From: a virus
Lineage: Duplodnaviria; Heunggongvirae; Uroviricota; Caudoviricetes
Virus record (IMG/VR): IMGVR_UViG_3300016674_000066
Reading direction: 5' to 3' (one strand)
Length of the DNA stretch: 64,000 nt
The notes beneath the pieces are model-generated. The model searched no databases and had not been told where the DNA came from. It saw only the letters and a program-made list of their open reading frames with translations. The translations under genes were made by a program, and so were the position numbers. Shown here one piece after another: positions 3 through 58,055 of this stretch (position 1 is the first letter of the stretch; each line of letters opens with the position of its first letter).

Positions 3-3000
3 GAGCAGGCCCTGGCCCGCATCGAGACCGTGGCCGAGTGGATGGGCGTGAACCTGGGCGACATCGCCCAAGGCGTCTCTCAGCAGAGCAACGAGCAGGC
101 AGGCCCTCCGACTCGTCCCCAGCAGGTCGGCCAGATGATCACGTCCACGCCTGGCTTGAGTGGTCAGGAGCGCGACGAGGCGCTGCAGTCGATGATGGCT
201 TGGCGCAACACTCGCCTGCCCGCCCGCACCCGCCAGGCCGCACTGGATCGCGCCCTCGAGATCGTTGGTCGCACCCAGGCACCGCAAGGCAGGGCCAACC
301 CGGATCGCCAGCCCGCCGTGATGCGCGACATCGCGCCGCAAGAGGGCGCGCCGGAGTACTTCCTGCGTGAAGCTGAGCGCCGCGAGGATGGCGCCTACCA
401 GTTCCGCGCTCTTGGCTATGACGATGAGGCTGATGCTCTACTGCTTGAGGCCGACAGCCTGCGTGAAGCCGCCGCCTCCGCGCGCGCTGGCACGCTGAAT
501 GTGGAGGACTCCGCAGAAGCTGACGCAGATATTGCTTCGCAATCAAGAGCACTTTCTGTTGACGAGGCAAGCGGAAGTTTGCCCCGTGTGCAGATCCCGG
601 CATCAACCGATCAAGAAATCGGCGAGGCCAGCACCGCGCTGCGCCGCAAGCGCAAAGCCCAGATTGCTCAGATCGTCGGCAACGGCTTCGACACGGTCGA
701 GCGCTCCGGCGAAGGCTTTGTCCTGCGCAACACCAAGACCGGTCAGAGCGTGATGCTCGACGGCATGGCCGATGCGCAGATCGCCCGCAACGCCATCAAG
801 GCGCGCGTCGACGAGCTCGCCAACACCGCTGCGGCCAGTCCACTGAACGATCGCCTGGAGCCCACCGAGGCCCAGATCAAGGCTGGCAACTACAAGAAGT
901 CCGACGTCATCGAGCTCAACGGCGTCAAGGTGGTCATCGAGAACCCGCGCGGCAGCGTGCGTCGCGGCGTGGGTGCCGATGGCAAGCCGTGGGAGACCAA
1001 GATGGCCCACCACTACGGCGAGATCGTTGGCACCGAGGGTGCTGACGGCGACCGCGTGGATGTGTTCATCGGCGATCGCCCGGCCAGCAACAAGATCTTC
1101 GTCATCGACCAGGTCAACCAGGATGGCACCTTCGATGAGCACAAGCTCGTCTTCGGCGCCGTCAGCGAGGCTGATGCACGCCAGACCTACTTGGCCAACT
1201 ACGACAAGGGCTGGACCGGTCTGGGCGCCATCAAGGAACTCCCGCTTGCCGACCTGAAGACCTGGCTCAAGGATCACGCCAAGAAGCCCGCTGCAGAAAG
1301 CGGCATGGGTGCCATCCAGGTTCGCGTCAAAGGCAAGACCTACACCGTCAGCGCTGTGCCGGTTGAGAGCCTGCCCGCGAGCTCTGGCGACTCTCCGTCG
1401 CGCGGCGTCAAGGGCGCCCAAATCACCAAGCAGCAGGCCATCCTGCTCAAGGGCCTGGCTGGCTTCTTCGGCAAGGACATCGTGTTCTTCTCCGACCCGC
1501 AGTCGAAGGTCGACTCGGACGGCTTCGTCATTCCTGGTGATGATGTCACGATCTACCTCAACGAGCGCTCCGGCATCTCCCCTCTGGCTGTGTTTGGCCA
1601 TGAGCTGATGCACATCCTGCGCAGCGACAACCCGGCTGCCTACGACGCCATCGCCAAGGTGGTTGCCGAGCGCGTGCAAGACCCCAAAGGCTTCCGCGAG
1701 AACTACTACGGCAAGGACTCCGCTGAGGCCAAGAGCGACGCCGCCCTGAGCGACCGCGACCTCGAGGAGCTGATCAGTGACCTCAATGGCGACCTGATGA
1801 GCGACGGCGCCTTCTGGCGTGATGTCTTCGCGAAGATCCAAGATGACAACGGCGCGCAAGCCAAGAGCATCATCGCCAACCTGGCGGCGTTCTTCCAGAA
1901 GATACTGGACGGCGCCATCGCCGCGATCAAGGGTCAGCCCAGCTTCCGTGCCAGCCGCTTCATCAACGATGCCGAGGCTGTGCGCAATGCCTTCCGCGAC
2001 GGCATGGCCATGTACGCCCAGGGCGCTGGCATCAGCAAGGCCGCCATGCAGGCTGAACTGCTCAAGGCTCAGCAGAAGCTTGGCGACATCAAGCGCTCAG
2101 CTCCGCGCCCTGACGACGGCCTGACGGTCGATGGCTACCACTTCAGCAAGCAGGCGCGCCAGATCCTGTCGACAGGCTTCTTCGGCACCGGACTGCAGGG
2201 CAGTGACCGCGAAGAGATCATGTCGAACCCCGACATGCGTCTGCGCCAGCGCCTGTCCTTCTACGTCAACAAGGGCACCGGCATTCGCCCGGAGTCTGGC
2301 GTTGGCCCCATTGCCCACAAGGCAACGCTGACCAACATCTACGACGCTGACGCGGACGTCAAGCGCCTGAAGCAGGGCCGAGACAAGCGCGCCTTCGAGA
2401 CCGCCGTGATCAACGCCGGTTACTCGGGCTACCTCACGCGCCTCGATGGCAGTCAGCCTGGCCAGGTCATCCTGCTGGGTAGCCAGACCGTGAAGACCGA
2501 AGTCCTCGGCATGCGTACGCAGATCGATGACGCCAAGGTTGTGCCGGCCATGGCCAAGCGCGACGCTGACCTGGGCGACAAGTTTTCCGCCCTGAAGATC
2601 CCGCTAAACGGCCAGCTGATTCCGCAGCGCTGGGCCCAGATGGTGATGGCGCGCGACCCTGAGTTGGCCGCGCAGCTGATGGATATCGGCGCCTTCGAGG
2701 GCGACAAGCCGATGTATCAGGACGAGTTTGTCGCCATGGTGCGGCAGAAGGTCGGCGCACCAAAGAGGCCCTCTGGTCTGCAGGCCGCCGGGATCGTCTT
2801 TAAGGCCGCAGACACAGGCCGAATCCTGATGGCAAAGCGCGGATCATCTGTTGCCAACCCCGGCACATGGAGCATCCCGGGTGGCGCCGTCGATGCCGGC
2901 GAGTCGCTCGAGGCCGCCGCATTGCGTGAGGCCAAGGAGGAGATCGGTTTTCAGGGCCAGGTCAAGCTTGCCCGGATCGCCGAAGCCAAGTTCGGCAACG

Positions 3001-6000
3001 CAACGTTCAACACCTTCATCGCAACGGTTCCATCCGAGTTCTCTGTTCGCTTGAACGGGGAAAACTCAGAGGCGAAGTGGGTGGACCCGGACTCACTGCC
3101 GGACGGGCTGCACCCCGGATTTAGAGATGTCAAAGACCTGGTTGTTGGCGCCGCAAAATCCAAGAATCCGGCCGCATTGAGCCTGGATGGAAGCGAGATC
3201 AAGCGAAGCGCGCAGCGCGCCAAGGACGAGTACGCCGAAGTCGAGGCCAAGTACAAGGGCACCGACCAATGGCTCAAGGCGCCCAACGGCGGAAAGACGA
3301 ATCTGACCGAGCGCCAGTGGGTGCAGGTCCGCACTCCGGCCTTCAAGAAGTGGTTCGGTGACTGGGAGGCTGCGATCGCCAAGGGCGGCGTCTGGGCCGA
3401 CGACAGCACCTCCAAGGTTGTCGACGAGAACGGCGAGCCGCTGGTCGTCTATCACGGCACCGACAAGGGCGGCTTCATGGAGTTCGAGCAGCCCGGCGGC
3501 ACTGGCCGTGGCGACTTCGGGATCTTCACGACGCCCAACTGGGATATGGCGCGCAGCTACGTTCGCAAGAACCGCGCAAACGCAGTTGTCGACAGCGATA
3601 CCTCCGAGGCTGGCGACCAGCCCGGCATCTACGCCCTGTTCCTGAACATCCGCAACCCCAACGAGAGCGACTTCGAGGGTGCGACATGGAGCGGCGAGCG
3701 CTTCGGCCAGTACCAGGTTCTCGACGAGGACGGTGAGCCCATCTACGACGAGGCAGGCAACGGCTTCTTCGATTACGAGACGGCAGAAGAGCTGCTTGAG
3801 AAGAATCCCGGCTCCTACATTGAGCAGGCTGGCAGCCACTACGAAACTACCGACTCGGTGGTGAGAGAGGCCTGGCGCTATAAGAACGACGGCGCCATCG
3901 TGCGCAACGTAGTTGACGACGGCGGTGGCCCTGGCGCCTACGACATGACGCCGGCCGACATCTTTGTGGCCCTGTCACCCAACCAGCTCAAGTCCGCCGA
4001 CTTCAATGGTGGCGAGTTCAGCGCTGAGTCTGACGACATCCGCCGCAGCACGTCGCGCGAGTACAAGCTCGCCATCGACCGGGAGAGTCGCGTCAAGGCG
4101 AAGGTGGTTCGTTTGCTACCTGAAGAGATTTCGGCAATCGAGTCGGACGCGAAGAAGTTTGGCCTGTCGACCTCTCAGGTGAAGTCGGTGATGGATAGTG
4201 CCAAGGCAACAAAGCGGCAGTATCCGGCGTCTGAGGGTTGGGCCCAGATCTCAGTCATCGGCATCAACGTCAAGAAGGATGACAATGGCAACATTGTCCC
4301 GAACAGCGAAGAGCCGAAGTTCAAGGAGATCTCTTACGGCTTCAACGTTCCGCCCGGAAAGACCCGTGCGTCGCCAAAGCTGGATGCAGATCTGGCTGGC
4401 AAGGTTGCCAAGAAGTTTGAGCAGCTCATCCTGGACGTCTACGACCGAGCCGAGTCTGGCGACAAGAACGCCCAGATCATCGTTGGGCACCAGACCTGGT
4501 ATCGCAACGTGGCCGAGGTTCTGCGGCGCGAGTATGGCGCGGCCGGTGACATGTTGGCCGACCTGCTTGGTGCAACTTCCCCGAATACGCCAGTAGACAC
4601 CAACTGGAAGTTCTCTATCGACATCATGCGCCGCTTCATGCGGGGCGACTTTGATGAGCAGCTGGAGAAGTTCTCTGCCTTTGTTGAGCGCGGTGGCGAC
4701 CCGTCAAAGTATCCGGCCGCAGACAAGATCCGCCAGATCAGCGGCAAGCTGTATGGCATGAACTCCACCAACGCCATGAAGGCGCTGGTTGATATGTGGC
4801 GGCTGATTGAGCCGGGCCAGGCTCCGAAGGCGCGCAACTTTGCGTTGAACCTGATTGGCCAGTCGAACATGGCAACGATAGACGTGTGGGCTGCGCGGAT
4901 GCTTCGTCGCGCTGCCAACATGGTGAGAGGCGTCAGCCTGCCACGCATCCCTCCTGTTGCTGAGACCGGAGTGACTGGCGCCTGGAACGCGGACAGCACC
5001 AAGGTGACTGGCGAGTTTGGCTTTGGCGCTGAAGTCATGCAGATGGTCTCTGACTCGCTGGCCAAGAAGGGCGTCGTCGTATCCCCTCCAGATCTGCAGG
5101 CGATTGCGTGGTTTGCTGAGAAAGAGTTGTGGGGCCAGAAGGGATGGACCACAAAGACCGGCGAAGGCGGGTCGTTTGAGGAGAACATCGAGGCAACTCC
5201 GGTTGAGCGATACCTGGCCGGATGGAGCATCCAGCAAGGCGAAAAGCGCCCCGAGGATGGCAAGGCCACCGTGGCGCAGGCCCGCGTCATGTCCATGCTG
5301 GTTGGTGATGACACGGTGCTGGCTGCGCGCGTCATGCCGACTTACGGTCTGTACGGCGGCACCATCGAGGCATCGTTCGATACCGAGTGGACGGCGCAAA
5401 AGGGCAAGCATGACCCGACGCTGGTGATGGCCGAGATCGCCAAGCTGGCGCAGGAAAACAATCAGTGGGACATCTTTGTGTCCAGGGTTGTGCAACCGAA
5501 CGAGGAAAACAGAAACGCACGCCCAGGCGTTGAGATCTACTTCCGCGACCGCAAGTCTCTCGACCAGGCCATGCCCATCCTGGAGCGATTCACATCGCGC
5601 GGTCAGGATGGATTTACAATGGCCGTTGACCCACGAGCCAAGAAGAAAGGGCTGGAGGATCAGGAATTTATTGGGGTGAGGCTCCAGTACGTTCCCGAGA
5701 TCTCGATGCGCTGGGATGAGTCCTTGCGCGAAGAGATCATGAAGCCTGGTGCGATTGAGCAGATTCTCGATGAGAAGCGCCAGCTTCTTCACGAGATCGC
5801 TCGCGAGGTTAGGTCCATGGATGGCGTGGCTTTCGCCTCCATGCAGCAGTACGACACGGTTGTCGTCGGAAAGGAAAACTACGATGAGTACATTGATCGA
5901 GCAACTGAGGAAGGACGTCAGGGAGCTCGAACGCAAGCATGGTTCGGACGACCCGTACGTCAAGGACTTGAAAGAGCAGTTGCGCGCCTCAGAGGAGAAC

Positions 6001-7070
6001 GCGAGCAAGCCGGCCGAGGAGGTGTACAAGATGCAGGCGACGCAGTTCAAGCCAAACCTGCCCTCTCGGCCGACGCGCAAGCAATTCTCGACGCAAGCGG
6101 AGTACGAAGAAGCCCTGGCCGGGTGGCAGAGCAGGGTCGGTCGGATCAAAGCTCTGGGCGCGAAAAAGACGGGAGCCTGAATGGCCTGCCGCGCGACTTC
6201 ACTGTCGCCGGCATCGACATCCGCGCCAGCCACTGGGCACCAGCCGAAGCTGTAGCGCGTCAGTACATGGAGCGCGCCGGTCTCGAGTACCGGCCTCCAG
6301 CCAAGTACGCCAAGGTCGACAAGGAGCGTGCCGCGCGCATCGCTGCCGAGTACGACCGCATGAAGCACGATCCGAAGAATCCTGTGGTCAAGGCTGCCTA
6401 TAAGGCCCTGACCAAGGAAACGATCGAGCAGTACCGCGCCGTCGTCGAGTCTGGGCTGCAGGTCGAGTTCATCGACTTCGCCTCCCAGGGCGACCCGTAT
6501 GCCGCCAGCCCGCGCCTCATGACCGAGGACGTGCGCAACAACAACCACATGTGGGTGTTCAGCACGCGCGACGGCTTCGGCACCGACGCATCCTTCGACC
6601 CTGAGGACAACCCGCTCCTGGCGGAAACCGAGTTCGAGATCAGCGGTCAGAAGGCCCTGGTCAACGACCTGTTCCGCGTGGTGCATGACTACTTCGGTCA
6701 CGTCAAGGAGGGCGTCGGCTTCCGCGCTGATGGGGAGGAGAACACCTGGCGCGCCCACAGCTCTATGTTCAGCCCGCTGGCTCAGCGCGCGCTGACCACC
6801 GAGACGCGCGGCCAGAACAGCTGGGTGAACTTCGGGCCCCATGGCGACAAGAACCGCACGGCATCTGCTGGCGAGACGCACTTCGCTGACCAGAAGACTG
6901 GCTTGCTGCCGCTGTGGGTGAGCGAGGACGGGCGCTACGACGAAGATGCCTCGGCTCAGCCTGACGACATGACGATCCGCATTGGCGAAGAGACTCAGAA
7001 ATCAGACGCCGACGAATACAATCAGCGGATCGCGGCACTCGAAGAGTTGATCGCCTGCCTCAACAAGTAA
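3..7070 (+). CDS. Giant multidomain 'polyvalent' virion/effector protein. It is 5'-partial: frame 0 is open from the window edge. Domains: inorganic-pyrophosphatase-like, HExxH zincin, Nudix, PARP-like ART, and a C-terminal module starting at 6181
   Basis: Frame 0 is open from nt 3 with high GC3. Motifs: ENPRGS...HHYGEI...DGDRVDVFIGD (PPase-like, about nt 930-1110); FGHELMHIL (HExxH, about nt 1600); GGAVDAGESLEAAALREAKEEIGF (Nudix box, about nt 2880-2950); VVYHGT...GDFGIFTTP...NPNESDF (H-Y-E ART-like, about nt 3440-3680). Confidence 0.75.
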   Translation, partial: EQALARIETVAEWMGVNLGDIAQGVSQQSNEQAGPPTRPQQVGQMITSTPGLSGQERDEALQSMMAWRNTRLPARTRQAALDRALEIVGRTQAPQGRANPDRQPAVMRDIAPQEGAPEYFLREAERREDGAYQFRALGYDDEADALLLEADSLREAAASARAGTLNVEDSAEADADIASQSRALSVDEASGSLPRVQIPASTDQEIGEASTALRRKRKAQIAQIVGNGFDTVERSGEGFVLRNTKTGQSVMLDGMADAQIARNAIKARVDELANTAAASPLNDRLEPTEAQIKAGNYKKSDVIELNGVKVVIENPRGSVRRGVGADGKPWETKMAHHYGEIVGTEGADGDRVDVFIGDRPASNKIFVIDQVNQDGTFDEHKLVFGAVSEADARQTYLANYDKGWTGLGAIKELPLADLKTWLKDHAKKPAAESGMGAIQVRVKGKTYTVSAVPVESLPASSGDSPSRGVKGAQITKQQAILLKGLAGFFGKDIVFFSDPQSKVDSDGFVIPGDDVTIYLNERSGISPLAVFGHELMHILRSDNPAAYDAIAKVVAERVQDPKGFRENYYGKDSAEAKSDAALSDRDLEELISDLNGDLMSDGAFWRDVFAKIQDDNGAQAKSIIANLAAFFQKILDGAIAAIKGQPSFRASRFINDAEAVRNAFRDGMAMYAQGAGISKAAMQAELLKAQQKLGDIKRSAPRPDDGLTVDGYHFSKQARQILSTGFFGTGLQGSDREEIMSNPDMRLRQRLSFYVNKGTGIRPESGVGPIAHKATLTNIYDADADVKRLKQGRDKRAFETAVINAGYSGYLTRLDGSQPGQVILLGSQTVKTEVLGMRTQIDDAKVVPAMAKRDADLGDKFSALKIPLNGQLIPQRWAQMVMARDPELAAQLMDIGAFEGDKPMYQDEFVAMVRQKVGAPKRPSGLQAAGIVFKAADTGRILMAKRGSSVANPGTWSIPGGAVDAGESLEAAALREAKEEIGFQGQVKLARIAEAKFGNATFNTFIATVPSEFSVRLNGENSEAKWVDPDSLPDGLHPGFRDVKDLVVGAAKSKNPAALSLDGSEIKRSAQRAKDEYAEVEAKYKGTDQWLKAPNGGKTNLTERQWVQVRTPAFKKWFGDWEAAIAKGGVWADDSTSKVVDENGEPLVVYHGTDKGGFMEFEQPGGTGRGDFGIFTTPNWDMARSYVRKNRANAVVDSDTSEAGDQPGIYALFLNIRNPNESDFEGATWSGERFGQYQVLDEDGEPIYDEAGNGFFDYETAEELLEKNPGSYIEQAGSHYETTDSVVREAWRYKNDGAIVRNVVDDGGGPGAYDMTPADIFVALSPNQLKSADFNGGEFSAESDDIRRSTSREYKLAIDRESRVKAKVVRLLPEEISAIESDAKKFGLSTSQVKSVMDSAKATKRQYPASEGWAQISVIGINVKKDDNGNIVPNSEEPKFKEISYGFNVPPGKTRASPKLDADLAGKVAKKFEQLILDVYDRAESGDKNAQIIVGHQTWYRNVAEVLRREYGAAGDMLADLLGATSPNTPVDTNWKFSIDIMRRFMRGDFDEQLEKFSAFVERGGDPSKYPAADKIRQISGKLYGMNSTNAMKALVDMWRLIEPGQAPKARNFALNLIGQSNMATIDVWAARMLRRAANMVRGVSLPRIPPVAETGVTGAWNADSTKVTGEFGFGAEVMQMVSDSLAKKGVVVSPPDLQAIAWFAEKELWGQKGWTTKTGEGGSFEENIEATPVERYLAGWSIQQGEKRPEDGKATVAQARVMSMLVGDDTVLAARVMPTYGLYGGTIEASFDTEWTAQKGKHDPTLVMAEIAKLAQENNQWDIFVSRVVQPNEENRNARPGVEIYFRDRKSLDQAMPILERFTSRGQDGFTMAVDPRAKKKGLEDQEFIGVRLQYVPEISMRWDESLREEIMKPGAIEQILDEKRQLLHEIAREVRSMDGVAFASMQQYDTVVVGKENYDEYIDRATEEGRQGARTQAWFGRPVRQGLERAVARLRGEREQAGRGGVQDAGDAVQAKPALSADAQAILDASGVRRSPGRVAEQGRSDQSSGREKDGSLNGLPRDFTVAGIDIRASHWAPAEAVARQYMERAGLEYRPPAKYAKVDKERAARIAAEYDRMKHDPKNPVVKAAYKALTKETIEQYRAVVESGLQVEFIDFASQGDPYAASPRLMTEDVRNNNHMWVFSTRDGFGTDASFDPEDNPLLAETEFEISGQKALVNDLFRVVHDYFGHVKEGVGFRADGEENTWRAHSSMFSPLAQRALTTETRGQNSWVNFGPHGDKNRTASAGETHFADQKTGLLPLWVSEDGRYDEDASAQPDDMTIRIGEETQKSDADEYNQRIAALEELIACLNK
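5884..6180 (+). CDS. Embedded small ORF in the +1 frame (98 aa, K/E-rich coiled-coil-like protein, MSTLIEQLRKDVRELERK...) lying inside the giant ORF
   Basis: High GC3 and a realistic amino-acid composition in frame +1. Over the same span frame 0 has AT-rich third codon positions and an R/G/A-rich low-complexity translation. RBS: GGAAAGGAAAActacgATG. Confidence 0.4.
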   Translation: MSTLIEQLRKDVRELERKHGSDDPYVKDLKEQLRASEENASKPAEEVYKMQATQFKPNLPSRPTRKQFSTQAEYEEALAGWQSRVGRIKALGAKKTGA

Positions 7071-7082
7071 CGGAGAAGCCAG

Positions 7083-10000
7083 ATGGCGCAATTGATGTCG
7101 ACCTCGTGCCTGAAGTTGGTCGCAAAAATCAACGAGAGAGACCAGGATGCGCTGCTCTCTCGCCTCGACGAGCTCCAGGCCCAGGGCATGCCGGCGCAGC
7201 GCGCCCAGATCCAGGCCGCCATCGATGTGCTCTCTGGCCTTCGCCGCGAGGCTGCAAACGCCTCGTCCATCCCCGAGGACCAGGACATCAACCCGGACCA
7301 GCCCGACATCAAGCGCAGCGCTGCCCGAGTCATCCCTGACTTCGTTGAAGAGAACATCGAGGACACGGAGTACCCGGGCTCGAAGTATGCGGAGTTCGAT
7401 GACGGAGCCGCGTACGTGAAGTTCTTTGCGGACAACAAGGGGGATCTGCGTGTCACGACGCTGAATACCGAGGGCTCAGATAAGGTGCGCGGGCGAGATG
7501 TGTTGCGCTGGCTTGGGCAGACGTACGGTCGCCCGATCCTGGTCAACGAGGTCGACCCTCCTGCGTCTGGCTTCTGGGACAAGATGCAGGATGAAGGCAT
7601 CATCAAGGACTGGTCCAGGGATGCGTATCGAGGCAAGACGTCTAGCTTGCCGGATACCGACATCAAGCGCAGCACCGGCAGAAGCGAGGAAGAGATCGCA
7701 GCCGCCAGGGCTGATGGCTGGACCATCGCCGACAACGACCTGCCGTCGCGAGAGGCTGCAGAGCGCATCGTCAAGCTTCGCACCAAGGGCAACAGCGTCG
7801 TCAAGCCGATGGCCGCCTGGCAAGGCGCTGAGGTGCGCGTTGTCGAGAGCGACAACCCCGGGTTCTGGGCGATCGAGGCTCGCCGACCCGACGCAAAGCG
7901 CAGCGCCGCGCGCGACATCACCCGCAGCCGCAAGCGCCAGCCATCTGAGATTTTCGGCCGAGAGATCGCGCCAGCTGCAATCCGCGCATACAAGTCACTC
8001 TCCGCTGGCGCCAAGTCGATCGTCGACGGCTGGAACGTCAACTGGTCCATGGGCCAGGGCAGGCTGCGCAACAGCAAGGACTTTGATGAGGTGGTCAAGG
8101 CCTATGAGCCGGTGCGCGAGAAGCTGCGCCAGGTGTACGGCAGCACCGTGCCGGCATTCCGAGGCGAGAAGCAGGACGGCACCGAAAGCACGGACGATCG
8201 ATTCCTGTTCTCATGGACGCCGATGCGCGACATTGCAGCCGGCTTCGCCGTCAACCGCCGCTACGGCATGCCGGCCGAGATCCCGCAGTCTAAGGTCGAC
8301 GAGCAGATCGAGGCGTACAGTAAGACGGGCATCGCCCGCCTGAATGGCTACAAGTTCGTCCGCAAAGATCCGGGCGACTACGAGCCCGACGGCCCGGACT
8401 ACTACTACATCTACCAGGGCGGCGAGATGATCACCGACGGTGACGACATCGCCCGGGCTCTGCAGCAGGAGAAGGATGAGCGCGACGCATGGATCGGCGA
8501 GTTGCGTGATGGCGGCAAGCTCTACGCCGGCAACATACCGGTTGACTCAGTGGCATTCATCCCTGTTGGCGCCAACCTGCGCCAGCCCGAGTTCGTTGCC
8601 GAGTACAACCCCCGCAAGGACGCGGCTGGCGAGATCCGCCTAAGCACCAAGCGCAACGAGCTCGGCTTCCATTCTGCTCTCGAGCGTGGCATCGAAGACA
8701 TGCAGACCAAGTCTGCTCTTGCCGGTGCCTGGAAGGCCCAGATCAAAGGCTTGGTCAACAAAGGTGCCGTGAAGCAAGACGAGGTCACCTGGTCCGGCAT
8801 TGAAGACTGGCTCGACATCCAGGATGGCAAGGTCACCAAGGATGCAATCGCCGAGTACCTGAAGCAGGGCGGCGTGCAGGTGGAGGAGGTGACGCTGGGC
8901 GCCGTGGAGACTGGGCCCCAGCTCGATGCCTGGCTCGAGAAGTGGTCAGAGGAAAACGATGGTGAAACCGCCAACGCCATCTACAACGGCCAGGCCTGGA
9001 GCTATATCCAGCGCATTGCAAAGCAAGAAGGCCACCAGGATGTTGTTGACCGCATCGAGGCTAAGGTCAGTGGTGCGGAGCCCAAGTACGGCCAGTACAC
9101 CCTGCCTGGCGGCGAGAACTACCGTGAGGTGCTGCTGACGCTGCCGCCGATTGGCGGTGTGAGGTACACCGAAGAGAACGTCATTGCCATCGACGACTCC
9201 GATGACCCGAAGCGGTCGCAATACTTTTGGCGCTTCAAAGTTCCTGGCAACGAGCTGCAGATCTCCAAGCAGGTCTACCGCACCCAAGAGGAGGCAAAGG
9301 CTTACATCCTGAAGGAGAAGCAGCCAGAACCGCCAGCAGACAAGAACTACCGCTCCAGCCACTGGGATCAGCGCAACATCCTCGCTCACATCCGCGTCAA
9401 CGACCGCGCCGATGCCGACGGCAAGCGCGTTCTGTTCGTCGAGGAGCTGCAGAGTGACTGGGGGCAGGAGGGCAAGAAGAAAGGGTTTGCAGACAAAAGT
9501 GTGAGCATGGCTGAACTGGCCAAGCAGTTCGACGAACTCAACCGAGAGCGCCGCACCCTTGAGCAGCAGATTGCGGAAGGCGACGACGCTGACCAGGCAA
9601 CTCAAGCGGCTGTTGAAAGGTCGGTTGATGTCAACCGCCAGATGGTTGCACTGTCTGACCGCATGGCCGCACTTCGCTCCGGCGTCCCCACCGCACCCTT
9701 TGTGACCAAGACCGAAGGCTGGCTCAACCTCGCCCTCAAGCGCGTCATCGCCATGGCGGTGGATGGCGGCTACGACGCAGTCGCCTTCGTCAATGGCGAC
9801 CAGTCGGCTGATCGGTATGACCTGAGCAAGCACGTCGATGAGTTGATGATAGAAAGGGATGGAGACAGCTTCAAGATTTCCATGAAGCCCATCGGCGGTT
9901 ACTACGGGGACGGCGGGCGCTGGAGCGGAAAGGTGCAAGAGCTACCAGACGTCTTGGGCAAAGAGCTTGCGGACAAGGTCGCAGCGCAGCCGGAAGGTCG

Positions 10001-13000
10001 GTCCTACATAAACGGTGTTGACCTCAAGGTAGGCGGCGAAGGCATGAAGGCCTTCTACGACAAGATCGTACCCAACGCTGTGAAAGCCCTGCTGAAGAAG
10101 GTGGGCGGAGAGCAGCTCGAGAAAGTCGGCATCCCAGACTCCAATGCTGGCCGCGAGGTTGTTGCAGCCAAGGTGCCGGGCGAAAATATGTGGGGCGTCT
10201 ACGATCGCCAGAAGGGTCAGTGGCTCGAGAGCTGGGACCGCGAGACCTACACATCTGACCCCGAGAATGCGGAGCTGACAAGCGAGAAAACGGCAAAGAG
10301 TATCGCTTCCGCGATCATGCGAGATGCCGGCGTTCTTCTGGAGCAACCCGGCTTCACCATCACCGACGCCATGCGCGAGAAGGTGGCAACCGAAGGCCTG
10401 CCGCTGTTCAGCCGCAAGCGCGACGTCACCGAGACGCCGGAGTTCCAGGCGTGGTTCGGTGACTCCAAGGTGGTGGACGCCGATGGCAAGCCGATGGTGG
10501 TGTATCACGGGACCGGCAAAGACTTCAGCGCATTCGGCGGCGGTTTTTCACCGGACCACGGGAGCGACGTTCACTTCTTCACCCCTGACCCGGATGTGGC
10601 GAATGGCTTTACCCCAGCAAGCGGCAATGGATCGGTAATTTATCCGGTCTATCTGTCGCTGCAAAATCCTGCTGAGCTTGATTTCTTTGGTGAGGACTAC
10701 GACGGAGAAGCCGTCAATGACGCGATAGACGAGGCGATCGCTGCTGGAAACGATGGCCTAATCATCACGAACATCAATGACGTGAAGGCATCGGAAATGC
10801 AGTACATCGCCTTCCGCCCAGAGCAGATCAAGAGCGCCATCGGCAACCGTGGCACCTTTGACCCAAGCGACGCAGACATCCGCCGCTCCACTGGCCGCAC
10901 CTTCACTGGTGCCGACTGGGACTCGCCCAGCGCCTCGAAGTTTGACGACCTGGTCTACAAATTCCAGGACAAGCTGATCGACACCAAGCGCGTGGTCGAG
11001 GCTATCAAGGACACGTCAGGCGCCATTGCTGACGACCTCGATGTCTACCTCCAGGAGGAGCTGTACCACGGCCGCGCCGCCAAGCGCACCGAGGACTTCG
11101 TGAACATGGAGCTCAACCCGCTGGTCGAGCAGCTGACCAAGGACGGCCTGAAGTTGGAAGACCTCGAGGAGTTCCTGCACGCCCGCCATGCGCCCGAGGC
11201 CAACAAGGTCATTGCCCAGCGCAACCCGGGCGTGGCAGGCCTCCAGGATGGCGGCTCCGGCATGAAGACGTCGGACGCCCTGGACTACATGACCACGTTG
11301 CCGGCAGACCTGAAAGCCAAGCTCGAGGCGGCAGCAGCCAAGGTCGACGACATCATCGCTCAGACCCGCAAGCTGTACGTCGACTACGAGCTCGAGAGCC
11401 AGGAGACGGTGGACGCCTGGGGCAAGATGTTCCAGCACTACATCCCGCTGCAGCGCGAAGACAAGGATGGCAGCGGCAGCCCGGGCCTGGGTCAAGGCTT
11501 CAGCGTCAAGGGCAAGGAGACCAAGGGCCGCACCGGTTCAACCCGCAAGGTGGTCGACATCCTGGCCAACATCGCCATGCAGCGCGAGAAGGCGATCGTG
11601 CGCGGCGAAAAGAACCGCGTGTCTCAGGCCCTGGTTGGCCTGGCCAGTGCCAATCCCAATGAGGGCTTCTGGACCGTCGACGAGGTGCCCACCGAGCGCG
11701 TGTACGACGAGCGCCTGGGTGTTGTGGTGGATCGCCCTGACCCGATGTGGAAGGCGCGCGAGAACACCATGGTTGCCAAGATCGTGGGGCCTGACGGCAA
11801 GGTCAAGGAGCACGCCGTCGTCTTCAATGAGGAGGACGAGCGAGCCATGCGGATGGCCAAGTCCCTGAAGAACCTGGACGCCACCCAGCTCGAGGGCCTA
11901 CTCGGCGTTAGCGCCAAGATCAGCCGCTACTTCGCCGCCATCAACACCCAGTACAACCCGGTGTTCGGCGTGGTCAACCTAGTGCGCGACGTCCAGGGCG
12001 CCGTGCTCAACCTGTCCTCCACTCCACTCGAGAACGACCGAGCCAAGATCGCCAAGGACACAGCATCCGCGCTGCGTGGCATCTATGGCGACGCCCGCGC
12101 CGCACGCAAGGGCAAGAACCCGTCGTCGGCCTGGGCGCAGCTCTGGGATGAGTTCCAGGAAGTCGGTGGACAGACCGGCTACCGCGACCTGTTCAGGACC
12201 AGTGCCGAGCGCGCGGAAGCCATCAAGAAGACGCTGAACCCGGATGCCTGGGCCGACAGCAAGCTTGGAAAGATCTTCACCGCCAACGGCGCACTGAAGG
12301 TGCCCATGGCCCAGGCCAAGCGCGGTGCCGGCTGGATCTTCGACTGGCTGAGCGACTACAACCTGGCCATGGAAAACGGCGTGCGCCTGGCGGCCTACAA
12401 GGCTGGTCTGGAGCGCGGGATGTCCAAGGAGCAGGCAGCATCGGTCGCCAAGAACCTGACGGTAAACTTCAACCGCAAGGGCCAGGTGAGCCAGCAGGCC
12501 GGCGCCATGTACGCCTTCTTCAACGCCTCGGTGCAGGGCACGGCGCGCATCGCCCAGACCATCTTCACCATGGAGCCTGGCAAGCCCAAGACCATCCGCC
12601 TGAGCCCCTTCGGCAAGAAGGTGGTGTACGGCGGCATGCTGGTTGGCTCCGTCCAGGCTCTGGCCCTGGCGGCTGCCGGCTTCGGCGACGAAGACCCGCC
12701 GCAGTTCGCCCGCGAGCGCAGCCTGATCATCCCGCTGATGAACGGCAAGTACATGACCATCCCGATGCCGCTGGGCTTCCACGTCATCCCCAACATCGGG
12801 CGCATCACCACCGAGTTCGTGTTGAGCGGATTCAGCAAGCCGCACGAGCGCGCACTGCAGCTGTTCGGGCTGTTCGCCGACACGTTCAACCCGATCGGCA
12901 ACGCCGGCATGTCCATGCAGACCCTGGCCCCCACGGCGCTTGACCCGCTGGTGGCGCTGACCGAGAACCGCGACTGGACCGGCAAGCCGATCGCCCGCGA

Positions 13001-13604
13001 GTCGATGAACCCAGCCACCCCTGGCCACGCCACGGCGCGCGACACGGCAACCGCCCTGTCCAAGTTCCTGGCCGAGGCCATCAACACGGCGTCCGGCGGC
13101 AACCAGTACGTGGCAGGCGTCTTCTCGCCCAGCCCGGACCAGATCGACTACCTGATTGGCCAGATCACCGGCGGCGTAGGTCGCGAGCTCTCGAAGGTTG
13201 AACAGTCATCCCTGGCCGCGCTGCGTGGCGAGGAGCTGCCCACCTTCAAGATCCCGCTGGTGGGTCGCTTCGTTGGCGATGCCAAGCAGCAGGCCAGCGA
13301 GGGCTCAGCGTTCTACGCCAACACCGAGCGCATCAACAAGGTGGAGACGGAGATCAAGGGCCTGCAGAAGGACGGCAAGTACGCCGAGGCGGCCGAGCTG
13401 CGCCGCACCAACAGTGACGCCTACCTGATCGCCGTGGCCAACCAGGCCGAGCGCCAGATCCAGAAGCTGCGTTCTGAGAAGCGAGAGCTGATCAAGAACA
13501 ATGCGCCGCGCGAGCAGGTGCGCGCCGTCGAGGAGCGCATCACCGCAGTGATGGCCCGTCTGAACCGTGCCGCCGAGAGACTAAGGGAGCAGCAGGGCAA
13601 CTGA
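7083..13604 (+). CDS. Second giant polyvalent protein (2173 aa) with repeated DIKRS(A/T)xR linkers, a PARP-like ART domain and a C-terminal coiled coil
   Basis: Uninterrupted ORF with high GC3. The motif VVYHGTGKDF...VHFFTPDPD...NPAELDF (about nt 10490-10690) is a paralog of the ART-like domain in the first giant protein. The D-I/A-K/R-R-S motif occurs four times. Confidence 0.75.
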   Translation: MAQLMSTSCLKLVAKINERDQDALLSRLDELQAQGMPAQRAQIQAAIDVLSGLRREAANASSIPEDQDINPDQPDIKRSAARVIPDFVEENIEDTEYPGSKYAEFDDGAAYVKFFADNKGDLRVTTLNTEGSDKVRGRDVLRWLGQTYGRPILVNEVDPPASGFWDKMQDEGIIKDWSRDAYRGKTSSLPDTDIKRSTGRSEEEIAAARADGWTIADNDLPSREAAERIVKLRTKGNSVVKPMAAWQGAEVRVVESDNPGFWAIEARRPDAKRSAARDITRSRKRQPSEIFGREIAPAAIRAYKSLSAGAKSIVDGWNVNWSMGQGRLRNSKDFDEVVKAYEPVREKLRQVYGSTVPAFRGEKQDGTESTDDRFLFSWTPMRDIAAGFAVNRRYGMPAEIPQSKVDEQIEAYSKTGIARLNGYKFVRKDPGDYEPDGPDYYYIYQGGEMITDGDDIARALQQEKDERDAWIGELRDGGKLYAGNIPVDSVAFIPVGANLRQPEFVAEYNPRKDAAGEIRLSTKRNELGFHSALERGIEDMQTKSALAGAWKAQIKGLVNKGAVKQDEVTWSGIEDWLDIQDGKVTKDAIAEYLKQGGVQVEEVTLGAVETGPQLDAWLEKWSEENDGETANAIYNGQAWSYIQRIAKQEGHQDVVDRIEAKVSGAEPKYGQYTLPGGENYREVLLTLPPIGGVRYTEENVIAIDDSDDPKRSQYFWRFKVPGNELQISKQVYRTQEEAKAYILKEKQPEPPADKNYRSSHWDQRNILAHIRVNDRADADGKRVLFVEELQSDWGQEGKKKGFADKSVSMAELAKQFDELNRERRTLEQQIAEGDDADQATQAAVERSVDVNRQMVALSDRMAALRSGVPTAPFVTKTEGWLNLALKRVIAMAVDGGYDAVAFVNGDQSADRYDLSKHVDELMIERDGDSFKISMKPIGGYYGDGGRWSGKVQELPDVLGKELADKVAAQPEGRSYINGVDLKVGGEGMKAFYDKIVPNAVKALLKKVGGEQLEKVGIPDSNAGREVVAAKVPGENMWGVYDRQKGQWLESWDRETYTSDPENAELTSEKTAKSIASAIMRDAGVLLEQPGFTITDAMREKVATEGLPLFSRKRDVTETPEFQAWFGDSKVVDADGKPMVVYHGTGKDFSAFGGGFSPDHGSDVHFFTPDPDVANGFTPASGNGSVIYPVYLSLQNPAELDFFGEDYDGEAVNDAIDEAIAAGNDGLIITNINDVKASEMQYIAFRPEQIKSAIGNRGTFDPSDADIRRSTGRTFTGADWDSPSASKFDDLVYKFQDKLIDTKRVVEAIKDTSGAIADDLDVYLQEELYHGRAAKRTEDFVNMELNPLVEQLTKDGLKLEDLEEFLHARHAPEANKVIAQRNPGVAGLQDGGSGMKTSDALDYMTTLPADLKAKLEAAAAKVDDIIAQTRKLYVDYELESQETVDAWGKMFQHYIPLQREDKDGSGSPGLGQGFSVKGKETKGRTGSTRKVVDILANIAMQREKAIVRGEKNRVSQALVGLASANPNEGFWTVDEVPTERVYDERLGVVVDRPDPMWKARENTMVAKIVGPDGKVKEHAVVFNEEDERAMRMAKSLKNLDATQLEGLLGVSAKISRYFAAINTQYNPVFGVVNLVRDVQGAVLNLSSTPLENDRAKIAKDTASALRGIYGDARAARKGKNPSSAWAQLWDEFQEVGGQTGYRDLFRTSAERAEAIKKTLNPDAWADSKLGKIFTANGALKVPMAQAKRGAGWIFDWLSDYNLAMENGVRLAAYKAGLERGMSKEQAASVAKNLTVNFNRKGQVSQQAGAMYAFFNASVQGTARIAQTIFTMEPGKPKTIRLSPFGKKVVYGGMLVGSVQALALAAAGFGDEDPPQFARERSLIIPLMNGKYMTIPMPLGFHVIPNIGRITTEFVLSGFSKPHERALQLFGLFADTFNPIGNAGMSMQTLAPTALDPLVALTENRDWTGKPIARESMNPATPGHATARDTATALSKFLAEAINTASGGNQYVAGVFSPSPDQIDYLIGQITGGVGRELSKVEQSSLAALRGEELPTFKIPLVGRFVGDAKQQASEGSAFYANTERINKVETEIKGLQKDGKYAEAAELRRTNSDAYLIAVANQAERQIQKLRSEKRELIKNNAPREQVRAVEERITAVMARLNRAAERLREQQGN

Positions 13605-55769: not shown

Positions 55770-58055
55770 ATGGACCAAGACATCGAATACCAGCTCGCAG
55801 CAGAGCAAGAGCTAAGTGAACGGCCCGAGCAAACCCAGGAGCTGCACGCCCTTGGCGTCAAGCTGATTGCCGAGTTCGCCCAGGCCGAGGCCGATCGTCT
55901 GCTGACCGAGCAGCGCTGGCTGAAGGACTTGCGCCAGTACAAGGGCCAATACGACCCTGAGGTCGAGGCCGCCATCGGCAAGAACCGCTCGCGAGCCTTC
56001 CTGCGCAAGACCCGGGTGAAGGTCAAGACGGCAGACAGCCGCGTCATGGACCTGCTCTTCCCGGCTGGCACCGAAAAGAACTGGGACATCGATTCCACTC
56101 CGGTGCCATCGCTGCCCGACGAGATCAAGCAGCAGGTGCTCGAGACGCTGATGCGCGTCACCAATGGCCAGCAGCCACCCAAGGAGGTGGTCGACAAGGC
56201 CATGCTGGGTGTGGCCAAGCAGCGCGCCAAGGCCATGGCCAAGGTCGTCGAAGACCAGCTGGCAGAGGTGCGCTACCGCCAGGTTGCCAAGGATGTCGTC
56301 CACAGCGGTCACCTGTACGGCACCGGCGTGCTCAAGGGCCCGCTGATCGAGCGCAAGGTGCGGGTCAAGTTCGTGAAGGAGGGCAACCGCTGGGTGCCGA
56401 AGAATGAAGAGTACGTGGTGCCCTTCATCGACTTTGTGCCGGTGTGGCGCTTCTACCCGGACATGAACGCGGCCAGCCTGGAGCAGTGCCAGTACATCTA
56501 CGAGCGCCACCAGATGACGCGCTTCGAGCTGGCCAACCTTGCCAACCGCAAGAGCTTCGACCGCACCAAGATCATCGACTACCTGAAGGCCAACCCCAAC
56601 GGGTTCCTGAAGCTGCGCTACTTCGACAACGAGCTGAAGGTCATCGGCGACCGCACAGCCAACCAGGGCAAGACCGGCCAGCAATACGAGGTGTTCGAGC
56701 GCTGGGGCTACCTCAACGGCGAGCAGCTCAAGGAGGTGGGCGTCAACATCCCCGATGACCGCATGCACGAGAGCTTCTTCTCGAACGTGTGGCTCCTGCC
56801 TGATGGCACGGTGATCAAGGCCGCCCTGCAGCCCATCAACGGCGTGACCTGGCCGTACCACCTGTACTACTTCGACAAGGACGAGACCTCGATCTTTGGC
56901 GAGGGCCTGCCGATGATCATGCGCGACGACCAGACGATGCTGAACGCTGGCATTCGCATGATGCTGGACAACGCGGCCATGACGGCTGGCGGCATGTATG
57001 AGGTCAACCCGCACCTGCTGCACCCGCTGACCAAGCACGACGAGATCTTCCCGCACAAGATCTGGCTGCGAAACCAGACCAACCCGGGCTCGCCTGCTGT
57101 CAGCGCCATCCAGTTGCCCAACGGCCTGAACACGTTGATGCCTCTGCACAACCTGTTCGAGAACAACGCCGACGAGGTGAGCGCCATCCCGCGCTACATG
57201 ACAGGCGAGAACGCCACCCAGGGCGCTGCGGGCACCAGCTCCGGCCTGTCCATGCTGATGGGTGCGGTGAACATCGTCATCAAGGACTTGATCACCAACT
57301 GGGATGAGGGCATCACCCGCCCGTTCGTGACCGGCCTGTACCGCTGGAACATGCAGTTCAACCGCGACGACAACATCAAGGGCGACTTCGATGTGAAGGC
57401 GCGCGGCACGGCCTCCCTGATCGCCAAGGAAGTGCGGGCACGCCAGCTCAACGAGTTCGGCGCCCTGACGGCCAACCCGCTGGATGCGCCCTTCATCAAC
57501 CGCCACCGCCTCAACCTGCTGCGCGCCGAAGCCAACGAGCTGTCCGACGTGGTCAGGAGCGAGGAGGAGGTGCAGGCCGAGATGCAGAGCGAGCAGGCGA
57601 AGCAGCAGCAAGAGCTGGCCATGCGTACACAGATGGCCCAGCTGGCAGAGCTCGAGGGCAAGGCCCGGGCCGCTGCGGCAGAAGCCAAGCTGCGCGAGGT
57701 CAAGGCGGGCGAGGTGCTGGCCAACATCGACCTCATCGTGGCCAAGGCCGTGAGCACCAAGGTCGAGGGCATCTACGCCGCGCTGCAGGCTGCTGGCGTG
57801 GCTGTCACGCAGCCCATGATTGCTCCGGCTGGAGACGAATTGCTGCGCAGCGCGGGCTTCAAGGATGCCACTCCGACGCCCTCCATAGCACAGATTCTTG
57901 GCCAGGATGTGCAGGTCATGGGCGCACAAGGACAAGAAGTTGCACCACTGCAACAAAATGTGGATAAAATTGCACCGCAACCCCAACAGCTTCAAGCTCA
58001 GACTGGGATGAGCGGTGTTAGATCAGGTATCGAGACGCCGGAGCTTGGAGAATGA
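55770..58055 (+). CDS. Portal protein
   Basis: 761 aa, lying immediately downstream of the terminase genes. Confidence 0.6.
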   Translation: MDQDIEYQLAAEQELSERPEQTQELHALGVKLIAEFAQAEADRLLTEQRWLKDLRQYKGQYDPEVEAAIGKNRSRAFLRKTRVKVKTADSRVMDLLFPAGTEKNWDIDSTPVPSLPDEIKQQVLETLMRVTNGQQPPKEVVDKAMLGVAKQRAKAMAKVVEDQLAEVRYRQVAKDVVHSGHLYGTGVLKGPLIERKVRVKFVKEGNRWVPKNEEYVVPFIDFVPVWRFYPDMNAASLEQCQYIYERHQMTRFELANLANRKSFDRTKIIDYLKANPNGFLKLRYFDNELKVIGDRTANQGKTGQQYEVFERWGYLNGEQLKEVGVNIPDDRMHESFFSNVWLLPDGTVIKAALQPINGVTWPYHLYYFDKDETSIFGEGLPMIMRDDQTMLNAGIRMMLDNAAMTAGGMYEVNPHLLHPLTKHDEIFPHKIWLRNQTNPGSPAVSAIQLPNGLNTLMPLHNLFENNADEVSAIPRYMTGENATQGAAGTSSGLSMLMGAVNIVIKDLITNWDEGITRPFVTGLYRWNMQFNRDDNIKGDFDVKARGTASLIAKEVRARQLNEFGALTANPLDAPFINRHRLNLLRAEANELSDVVRSEEEVQAEMQSEQAKQQQELAMRTQMAQLAELEGKARAAAAEAKLREVKAGEVLANIDLIVAKAVSTKVEGIYAALQAAGVAVTQPMIAPAGDELLRSAGFKDATPTPSIAQILGQDVQVMGAQGQEVAPLQQNVDKIAPQPQQLQAQTGMSGVRSGIETPELGE

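Follow-up and report, generated by a model that had tools for sequence, protein, structure and literature searches.

A conserved small gene nested out of frame in a giant polyvalent-protein gene of a Caudoviricetes virus: evidence for dual coding

Our analysis of a 64,000-nucleotide (nt) stretch of Caudoviricetes DNA (IMG/VR virus record IMGVR_UViG_3300016674_000066), hereafter called the window, concerns a segment of 297 nt at positions 5884 to 6180 that appears to be read in two frames of the same strand. In one of them, the segment is part of a giant open reading frame (ORF) encoding a polyvalent protein (plus strand, 3 to 7070; the first listed start is a GTG at 30). The other frame is +1 with respect to the giant ORF, and in it the segment forms a small gene that starts with the ATG at 5884, ends with the TGA at 6178 to 6180, and encodes 98 amino acids (aa), lying entirely within the giant ORF even when the latter is counted from 30 to 7070. 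Our comparisons show that this stretch maintains two frames, one for a small folded protein equipped with start signals of its own and the other for a stop-free connector of the polyvalent protein, and we consider it probable that 5884 to 6180 is a case of dual coding with independent initiation of the small gene. As a scan around the small ORF revealed neither a sigma-70-like promoter nor a terminator flanking it, we infer that it is translated from the mRNA of the giant gene and that both products are expressed from this one message.

The segment is set apart by its composition. Over 5884 to 6180, the G+C content at third codon positions (GC3) is 0.80 in the +1 frame versus 0.43 in the giant frame, while the corresponding values are 0.63 and 0.73 in the upstream region (5400 to 5883) and 0.66 and 0.85 in the downstream region (6181 to 6700). 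The cumulative difference between the two frames is lowest at 5889 and highest at 6165, in agreement with the bounds of the small ORF, and among the approximately 4,500 codons of the two giant ORFs of the window, this is the single segment in which the GC3 of another frame exceeds that of the host frame by more than 0.3. The product of the small ORF is rich in Glu, Lys, and Ala, and the giant frame, read over the same nucleotides, contains 15 Arg, 15 Ala, and 14 Gly per 100 residues. An earlier note on this DNA had described G/C-rich third positions and a Lys/Glu-rich product for the +1 frame, A/T-rich third positions and an Arg/Gly/Ala-rich translation for frame 0, and a motif ahead of the ATG, all of which our measurements bear out; the sequence directly 5' of ATG 5884 is GGAAAGGAAAA, with AAAGGAA at 5870 to 5876. 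The sharp return of high GC3 in frame 0 at 6181 that the same note reported was not reproduced, as the giant-frame GC3 is 0.31 in the first half of the overlap and already 0.56 in the second half (6034 to 6180), indicating a gradual recovery.

Judged from homology and structure prediction, the +1 ORF is a real gene, and it belongs to an undescribed, putatively all-helical protein family. A word-index search with the small protein yielded 31 homologues, all of 64 to 158 aa and none with a name or a Pfam domain. When the alignment of these homologues was used for a HMMER profile scan of 1.84 billion cluster representatives, 115 clusters were found at E values of ≤1e-3 and 48 at ≤1e-10. Nearly all of the 115 clusters consist of proteins of 49 to 201 aa whose alignments begin at residue 1 in profile and protein alike; four long matches, made up of many short stretches, were read as coiled-coil noise without inspection. 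The family shares an N terminus, MSTLIE, and a core, LE.KHGSD.P[FY]VKDLKEQLRASE...GK...EV[FY]RMQA, with conservation concentrated in the approximately 57 N-terminal residues and a variable C-terminal third; the window protein contains the peptides DVRELER, HGSDDPYVK, and ASEENASKPAEEVYK. AlphaFold2 (AF2) predicts four helices with a mean predicted local distance difference test (pLDDT) score of 83.4. A Foldseek comparison of this model with the PDB gave no significant match (best E value, 3.5), and no above-threshold match to the small protein was found in Pfam, PHROGs, NCBIfam, or PADLOC, with sub-threshold matches limited to coiled-coil families (DUF1843, DUF1192, and DUF465). Cultured phage and plasmid records, searched with both the small protein and the module that precedes it, gave nothing useful, the matches being limited to partial hits of the downstream domain annotated as "large polyvalent protein" or "RelA/SpoT."

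Homologues of the small gene also occur as free-standing called genes in L003 and L006 (comparison loci are designated by L numbers), two bacterial contigs resembling mobile elements. In both, the homologue sits between a gene for an outer-membrane beta-barrel protein and a DUF4156-like gene; Mob_Pre and AlpA are found in the surroundings of L003, and an HTH_3 gene, in addition to the beta-barrel gene, lies beside the homologue in L006.

To define how widely the nested arrangement occurs, viral, genome, and metagenome contigs were scanned with the small-family alignment and then processed with a frame-span script. The +1 nesting recurs in at least 12 independent metagenomic loci with GC contents of 51% to 69% and host ORFs of 354 to 5109 codons. 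The nested loci comprise the window (host ORF of at least 2356 codons), L008 (2956), L009 (4132), L010 (4370; GC content of the contig, 51%), L011 (at least 2975), L012 (at least 1990; a Pseudoxanthomonas metagenome-assembled genome with a GC content of 68%), L017 (2540), L026 (2017), L027 (5109), and L030 (at least 2613), as well as L033 and L036, where the hosts are a 460-aa protein of an integrase/Mob_Pre element and a 354-aa protein, respectively, and L034, where a free-standing homologue of the preceding module, 516 aa long, contains the small ORF in its 3' tail, which ends 13 codons past that ORF. This module, of approximately 500 aa, is here called the X module (4404 to 5883 in the window, giant frame). 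In every nested locus, it closes with the giant-frame motif ...MDGVA.A..YDTVVVGKENYDEY immediately before the small ORF (in the window, ...MDGVAFA..YDTVVVGKENYDEY), and the small gene always comes next. The linkage between module and small gene persists down to approximately 31% module identity (L034 and L035), and small-protein identity among the nested loci falls to approximately 45% and is lower still in L034 and L036. The length of the nested small ORF varies from 63 to 118 aa, and the frame relation is constant. The earlier note had reasoned that orthologues with a continuous frame-0 protein and an unconserved +1 ORF would speak against a genuine +1 gene; the orthologues do have an uninterrupted frame 0, but they conserve the +1 ORF along with it.

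These comparisons also decide against a technical origin of the frame switch. The earlier note had suggested a pair of compensating sequencing indels. Such errors, arising near 5884 and 6180 in sequencing or assembly, would mean that the Lys/Glu-rich segment truly lies in frame or that the giant ORF represents separate genes, and a switch bounded on both sides would indeed fit an indel pair in a single assembly. However, the same +1 arrangement and the same junction, with YDTVVVGKENYDEY lying over the Shine-Dalgarno (SD) element and the ATG, recur in no fewer than 12 assemblies made independently in different projects. In addition, no homologue was found in which the segment lies convincingly in frame inside a large protein, and the small ORF varies in its ends from locus to locus while its frame relation stays the same. 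Because of this recurrence, we regard sequencing indels as excluded for all practical purposes.

A series of other loci carries the small gene in partially nested or separate form. The module gene of L035 (515 aa) terminates 5 codons past the ATG of a called 59-aa divergent homologue, giving a 17-nt overlap, and the module frame is interrupted by stops within the small ORF; a module-frame stop inside the small ORF is also found in L019, L020, and L024. In L013 and L031, the module frame does cross the small ORF but within a shorter ORF (311 and 183 codons, respectively). The small gene occurs without the module in 11 distinct loci. Two observations on these loci may be recorded here. In L013 (9808 to 10719; Desulfobulbus alkaliphilus DSM 24258), a 303-aa ORF consists of the last approximately 60 module residues plus the overlap and contains a nested small ORF of 123 aa; this cassette lies upstream of a gene for a 1148-aa P-loop protein, in a setting that may be a defence island or a mobile element, and similar mini-cassettes are present in L019, L020, and L031. 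In L024 (1365 to 1381), and also in L016, a change of Ile5 from ATC to ATT, synonymous in the small frame, creates a giant-frame TGA 5 codons past the ATG. In L024, this TGA splits an otherwise module-type frame; with a contig coverage of approximately 2.5x, it could represent either natural un-nesting or a read error.

The start of the small gene is conserved together with the signals that would be needed for its translation. All 12 nested loci have an ATG (a GTG in L009) preceded by an SD-like element at a spacing of 4 to 8 nt, and the five partial loci analyzed likewise have an ATG with an SD-like element (spacer, 6 to 7 nt). The variants observed are AAGGAG, AGGAG, GGGAG, and AAAGGAA, the last being that of the window, where it is separated from the ATG by 7 nt, has a duplex energy with the anti-SD sequence of -5.6 kcal/mol, and coincides with the giant-frame codons for Gly-Lys-Glu. 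Since the giant-frame residues over this element vary among loci (Gly-Lys-Glu, Gly-Arg-Glu, Ser-Gly-Glu, and Phe-Arg-Ser), it is the nucleotide motif itself that is conserved. Stand-alone homologues begin exactly at the homologous start codon. The small gene thus is furnished with what, from its sequence, we recognize as translation-initiation signals of its own.

This evidence bears directly on another explanation offered by the earlier note, namely, programmed frameshifting that yields a truncated isoform. In the form considered here, ribosomes on the giant ORF would slip by +1 (or -2) near 5880 and terminate at 6180, and the isoform, composed of the modules through X and a 98-aa tail, would be made in place of, or in addition to, an independently initiated product. 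Programmed frameshifts are well established for the phage tail chaperone G/GT (-1) and for prfB (+1), and in prfB an SD-like element just 5' of the shift site stimulates the +1 shift, which we count in favor of this explanation. The present locus resembles both systems in that two frames are used over one stretch with an SD-like element just upstream; moreover, the +1 frame of the window is open for 47 codons 5' of ATG 5884, and the small ORF keeps a constant position relative to the module end. Unlike those systems, however, it has no slippery site, and it combines a conserved start with free-standing homologues and, in some loci, an in-frame stop upstream. Every locus retains a start codon (ATG or GTG) at the equivalent position, and all confident family members align from residue 1, with no convincing fusion to a large protein (the four long matches were not inspected). 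In L010, L033, and L024, a stop in the small frame 5 to 6 codons 5' of the ATG leaves no more than the SD region (18 nt) for any shift. The codons AAC UAC GAU GAG are not shift-prone and place neither a stop nor a rare codon in the A site, as judged by inspection rather than by a formal motif scan, and a -1 slippery heptamer cannot reach the +1 frame. The RNA around the junction contains no Rfam element, and folding of 5840 to 6000 gives a z score of -0.29 relative to shuffled sequences. With the start and SD element conserved, homologues starting at residue 1, nearby upstream stops in three loci, and no shift-prone site seen, we consider programmed frameshifting improbable.

Having considered the signals for the small frame, we turn to the giant frame, which is clearly held stop-free by selection. 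With the small-protein sequence fixed and codons drawn from the usage of the host ORF itself, 1.0 to 6.3 giant-frame stops per locus would be expected across the overlap, and none is found in any of the 12 nested loci. The probability of finding no stop ranges from 0.0002 to 0.34 over these loci (0.015 for the window, 0.0002 for L010, 0.0014 for L017, and 0.003 for L033); shuffling of each ORF's own synonymous codons gave 0.015 to 0.22 in ten loci. By comparison, all 11 stand-alone genes carry 1 to 5 stops in the corresponding frame, as exemplified by L016, where ATT-GAR at codons 5 and 6 creates a TGA.

It could nevertheless be argued that the small frame alone is functional and that the giant frame is open by chance, so that the locus would comprise three genes, for the module, the small protein, and a downstream product with a start of its own. 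The high GC3 of the small frame does make giant-frame stops rarer, most stand-alone homologues, too, are free of stops over at least the 40 N-terminal codons of that frame, and no constraint on the giant frame is detectable at the amino acid level. Yet chance is a poor account of the absence of stops from 12 nested loci when 11 of 11 stand-alone genes have them, and the module frame has no terminating stop, so that read-through is needed regardless. In the window, the downstream domain (6244 to 7067) is not preceded by any SD-equipped start codon (ATG, GTG, or TTG) in its frame and is therefore obtainable only by read-through of the overlap. Together with the continuation of polyvalent domains in the same frame for up to 2,330 codons and the suppression of synonymous change described below, these findings make a merely fortuitous openness very unlikely.

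The pattern of substitutions shows that the small frame is clearly under purifying selection, with an OLGenie-style dNN/dSN of 0.62 [0.45-0.79], and that its synonymous sites carry an additional constraint. In the same genome pairs, third-position divergence is 0.33 in the small-ORF core at 42% amino acid divergence versus 0.53 in the single-coding module at 35%. When synonymous codon differences were counted among identical, degenerate residues, they amounted to 0.31 in the small ORF versus 0.51 in the flanking module, the small ORF being lower in 44 of 45 pairs; stand-alone homologues of comparable divergence gave 0.48. Between the window and L008 alone, 13 of 79 sites differ in the small ORF versus 149 of 341 in the module (Fisher p = 5e-6). 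Nucleotide identity of this pair peaks at 0.97 to 0.98 over 5850 to 5985, the maximum within 2.5 kb. The first 35 residues of the small protein are identical in the two genomes, and the three nucleotide changes beneath them are all synonymous in the small frame and nonsynonymous in the giant frame. Over codons 35 to 99, changes are spread evenly over the three codon positions, as expected where every site is position 1 or 2 in one of the frames, and the C-terminal two-thirds of the protein differs at 25% of its amino acids, evolving fast in both frames.

The converse possibility, that function resides in the giant frame alone and that the +1 ORF, though open by luck, is what remains of a captured gene and is not translated, can be weighed against the same data. 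Such a relic would fit the fast evolution of the C-terminal two-thirds in both frames and the omission of the +1 ORF by gene callers on long contigs. Gene callers forbid fully nested same-strand genes, so that annotated giant phage genes do not reveal the family; calls of the small gene are confined to short fragments and stand-alone copies. Against a relic, all nested loci have preserved the ORF together with its start codon and SD element in spite of saturated synonymous divergence; the SD element is retained where the giant-frame residues change; the small frame shows purifying selection, with its 35 N-terminal residues identical to those of L008; and the lack of detectable amino acid constraint in the giant frame is the opposite of what a relic would predict. 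We therefore judge this alternative, too, to have only a very slim chance of being correct.

With dual coding as the preferred explanation, the question arises as to what the giant frame encodes on either side of, and across, the overlap. The giant ORF has Pfam matches to InPase (E value, 3.9e-50), NUDIX (2.6e-17), ART-PolyVal (2.4e-15), and DUF7178 (4e-9). The window edge probably truncates the 5' end of the gene, as the frame is open from nt 3 and the orthologue in L008 begins approximately 7.5 kb 5' of its small ORF, farther upstream than the 5.9 kb that the window offers. The X module comprises the DUF7178 match (4404 to 4904; PF23802, 37.1 to 41.2 bits versus a gathering cutoff of 27), which covers only its N-terminal part, and a conserved C-terminal alpha/beta domain, for which a weak fold match to phage SAM lyases was obtained. 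In an AF2 model of the module plus the overlap, this domain (model residues 333 to 570) has pLDDT values of 74 to 90. The model of the whole module is weak (mean pLDDT, 57) because its homologues are too shallow a set: a word-index search with the C-terminal 335 aa of the module, from which L033 to L036 were obtained, found 14 mostly fragmentary proteins. Across the overlap and approximately 20 further codons (5883 to 6243), the giant frame first completes the last helix of the X module and then encodes a short helix, VRQGLERAVARLR, followed by the Arg/Gly/Ala-rich linker. The short helix (residues 581 to 600) is modeled at pLDDT values of 71 to 77 and residues 602 to 682 at 25 to 38, so that the giant-frame product of the overlap is predicted to be mostly a disordered linker of approximately 80 residues leading to the next domain.

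That next domain (6244 to 7067 in the window) matches phrog_3170, and L008 and L033 have it 3' of their overlaps as well; elsewhere, the giant frame continues past the overlap with ART-PolyVal, LPD38, or MuF_C (E values of 1e-12 to 1e-43). A second giant ORF of the window (7083 to 13604; 2173 aa, with ART-PolyVal and LPD38) begins 13 nt past the end of the first. In L009, L010, and L027, equivalent domains share a single ORF with the module, so that the polyvalent gene has been either split in the window or fused in those loci. In L009 (10001 to 10192) and L027 (8242 to 8430), where a different downstream domain has been joined, the small ORF is shortened to 62 to 63 aa, and domain-shuffling junctions thus fall in the variable C-terminal third of the small gene.

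These data allow us to propose a scenario for the origin and use of the arrangement. Originally, the small gene would have followed the module gene with a short overlap, as it still does in L035. The module frame would then have been extended across the small gene, as in L034, and only later have been fused to further domains, after which selection would keep the giant frame free of stops. In the present-day window, the small gene would be translated from its own SD element (AAAGGAA) and ATG 5884, probably on the mRNA of the giant gene, while ribosomes translating the giant ORF would read the same nucleotides one base earlier, as the tail of the DUF7178-containing module followed by the Arg/Gly/Ala-rich linker that joins this module to the next domain. 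Loss of a stop codon is a familiar way in which an upstream gene is extended at its 3' end and an overlap is created, although such extensions usually end at the next chance stop and the overlaps remain short. The series formed by L035 (17-nt overlap), L034 (whole small ORF covered), and the nested loci fits this process; it differs from the usual outcome in that an entire gene has been engulfed and the extended frame runs on into functional domains, the overlap becoming an interdomain linker.

In this scenario, the small gene is probably the older and dominant frame and the giant-frame linker the newcomer, because the codon usage of the small frame is typical of the host, its fold is confidently predicted, free-standing homologues exist, and the fused downstream domains vary, those of the window and L008 differing from that of L009. 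The suggestion of the earlier note that an overprinted gene lies in a disordered linker is essentially right: the gene is conserved and the giant-frame overlap is modeled with pLDDT values of 25 to 38, but the polarity of the overprinting is probably reversed.

Several points weigh against this interpretation or limit its reach. Nine of the 11 stand-alone copies keep the codons CAT-GGT-TCN, which read WFG in the other frame, and since these WFG-spelling codons have been retained, some stand-alone copies may descend from nested ones and the nested state could be the older one. The copies concerned, in which these codons belong to the K-H-G-S motif of the small protein, are L003, L006, L014, L016, L021, L022, L028, L029, and L032. 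The OLGenie-style test of the giant frame gave a dNN/dNS of 1.04 [0.79-1.39], with a stand-alone control of 1.25 and low power at this divergence; in view of this null result, we do not claim selection on the amino acid sequence of the linker, and the giant-frame peptide may matter merely as a stop-free spacer. Part of the suppression of synonymous change could reflect a stronger GC3 bias in the small ORF, constraint on the initiation region, or local recombination. The SD element of the window, at -5.6 kcal/mol, ranks among the weaker ones of the loci compared, and several of the comparison contigs are short or low-coverage metagenome assemblies. Finally, the conserved linkage to the module is the single line of evidence for the function suggested below.

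As the small gene stays linked to the 3' end of the module across divergent elements, down to a module identity of approximately 31%, the small protein might act as a partner of the module, for example, as a cofactor, chaperone, or regulator, which is the weakest of our proposals on this locus. A broader hypothesis, which we rate as possible but rather doubtful, is that polyvalent proteins may grow by a kind of "read-through fusion," in which the frame of an upstream module is extended across a partner gene in another frame that is still expressed from an internal ribosome-binding site and whose DNA becomes a linker, and that the small protein may be an obligatory cis-encoded cofactor, chaperone, or inhibitor of the DUF7178 module, the two forming a new two-component counter-defence unit.

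Precedents exist for the genetic architecture itself. In the lambda Rz/Rz1 pair and in the phiX174 pairs B in A and E in D, a small gene is embedded on the same strand in another frame (+1 in the case of Rz1), with its own ribosome-binding site and start, and both proteins are made from one mRNA. The small gene of the window is likewise nested on the same strand in another frame with its own SD element and start. In the Rz/Rz1 and phiX174 pairs, the embedded gene is usually regarded as the novel one, and the Rz and Rz1 proteins form a complex of known function. By contrast, the embedded gene described here has stand-alone homologues, host-typical codons, and a confident fold, the host is a polyvalent protein of several thousand residues, and it is the host-frame product that is atypical and mostly disordered, which makes the host frame look like the newcomer. 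Compositional oddity and disorder are the features ascribed to the younger frame in a review of viral overprinting (PMC8227390), in line with the contrast between the two frames seen here.

Polyvalent proteins of phages and conjugative elements were defined by Iyer et al. in 2017 (PMC5512222), and the giant ORF conforms to that description in containing ART-PolyVal, NUDIX, InPase, and DUF7178, with LPD38 and MuF_C in related loci and a domain order that varies between relatives. It departs from it in harboring an internal out-of-frame gene; the words "frameshift" and "overlap" do not occur in the text of that article. A full-text literature search found nothing relevant on polyvalent proteins with overlapping genes and no mention of DUF7178 in the papers covered. 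Nested same-strand genes are thus already known, but the small-protein family is undescribed and the polyvalent context unreported.

Three further features of the window were considered as candidates and rejected. The ATG at 6181, just 3' of the TGA of the small ORF, might have served as a restart site; it lies in the small frame, which is open there for 24 codons, and it is missing in L008. At 57867 to 58055, GC3 shifts toward the +1 frame in the terminal stretch (approximately 60 codons) of an ORF of 761 aa, but a second nested gene was dismissed there, since no alternative ORF of at least 50 aa is present and the sequence is a Gln/Ala-rich low-complexity tail. A minus-strand ORF of 725 aa (6881 to 4704) was interpreted as a shadow ORF, as its codon-position GC content mirrors that of the plus-strand genes and the homologous frame has stops in most related loci.

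In conclusion, this locus provides a clean test case for dual coding, in which the inner frame is backed by homology and the stand-alone copies, with their stops, serve as natural controls. It points to read-through of an intervening gene as a possible way for domains to become joined in giant modular counter-defence proteins, and the small conserved protein that travels with the DUF7178 module is a candidate partner of that module and a handle for studying its function.

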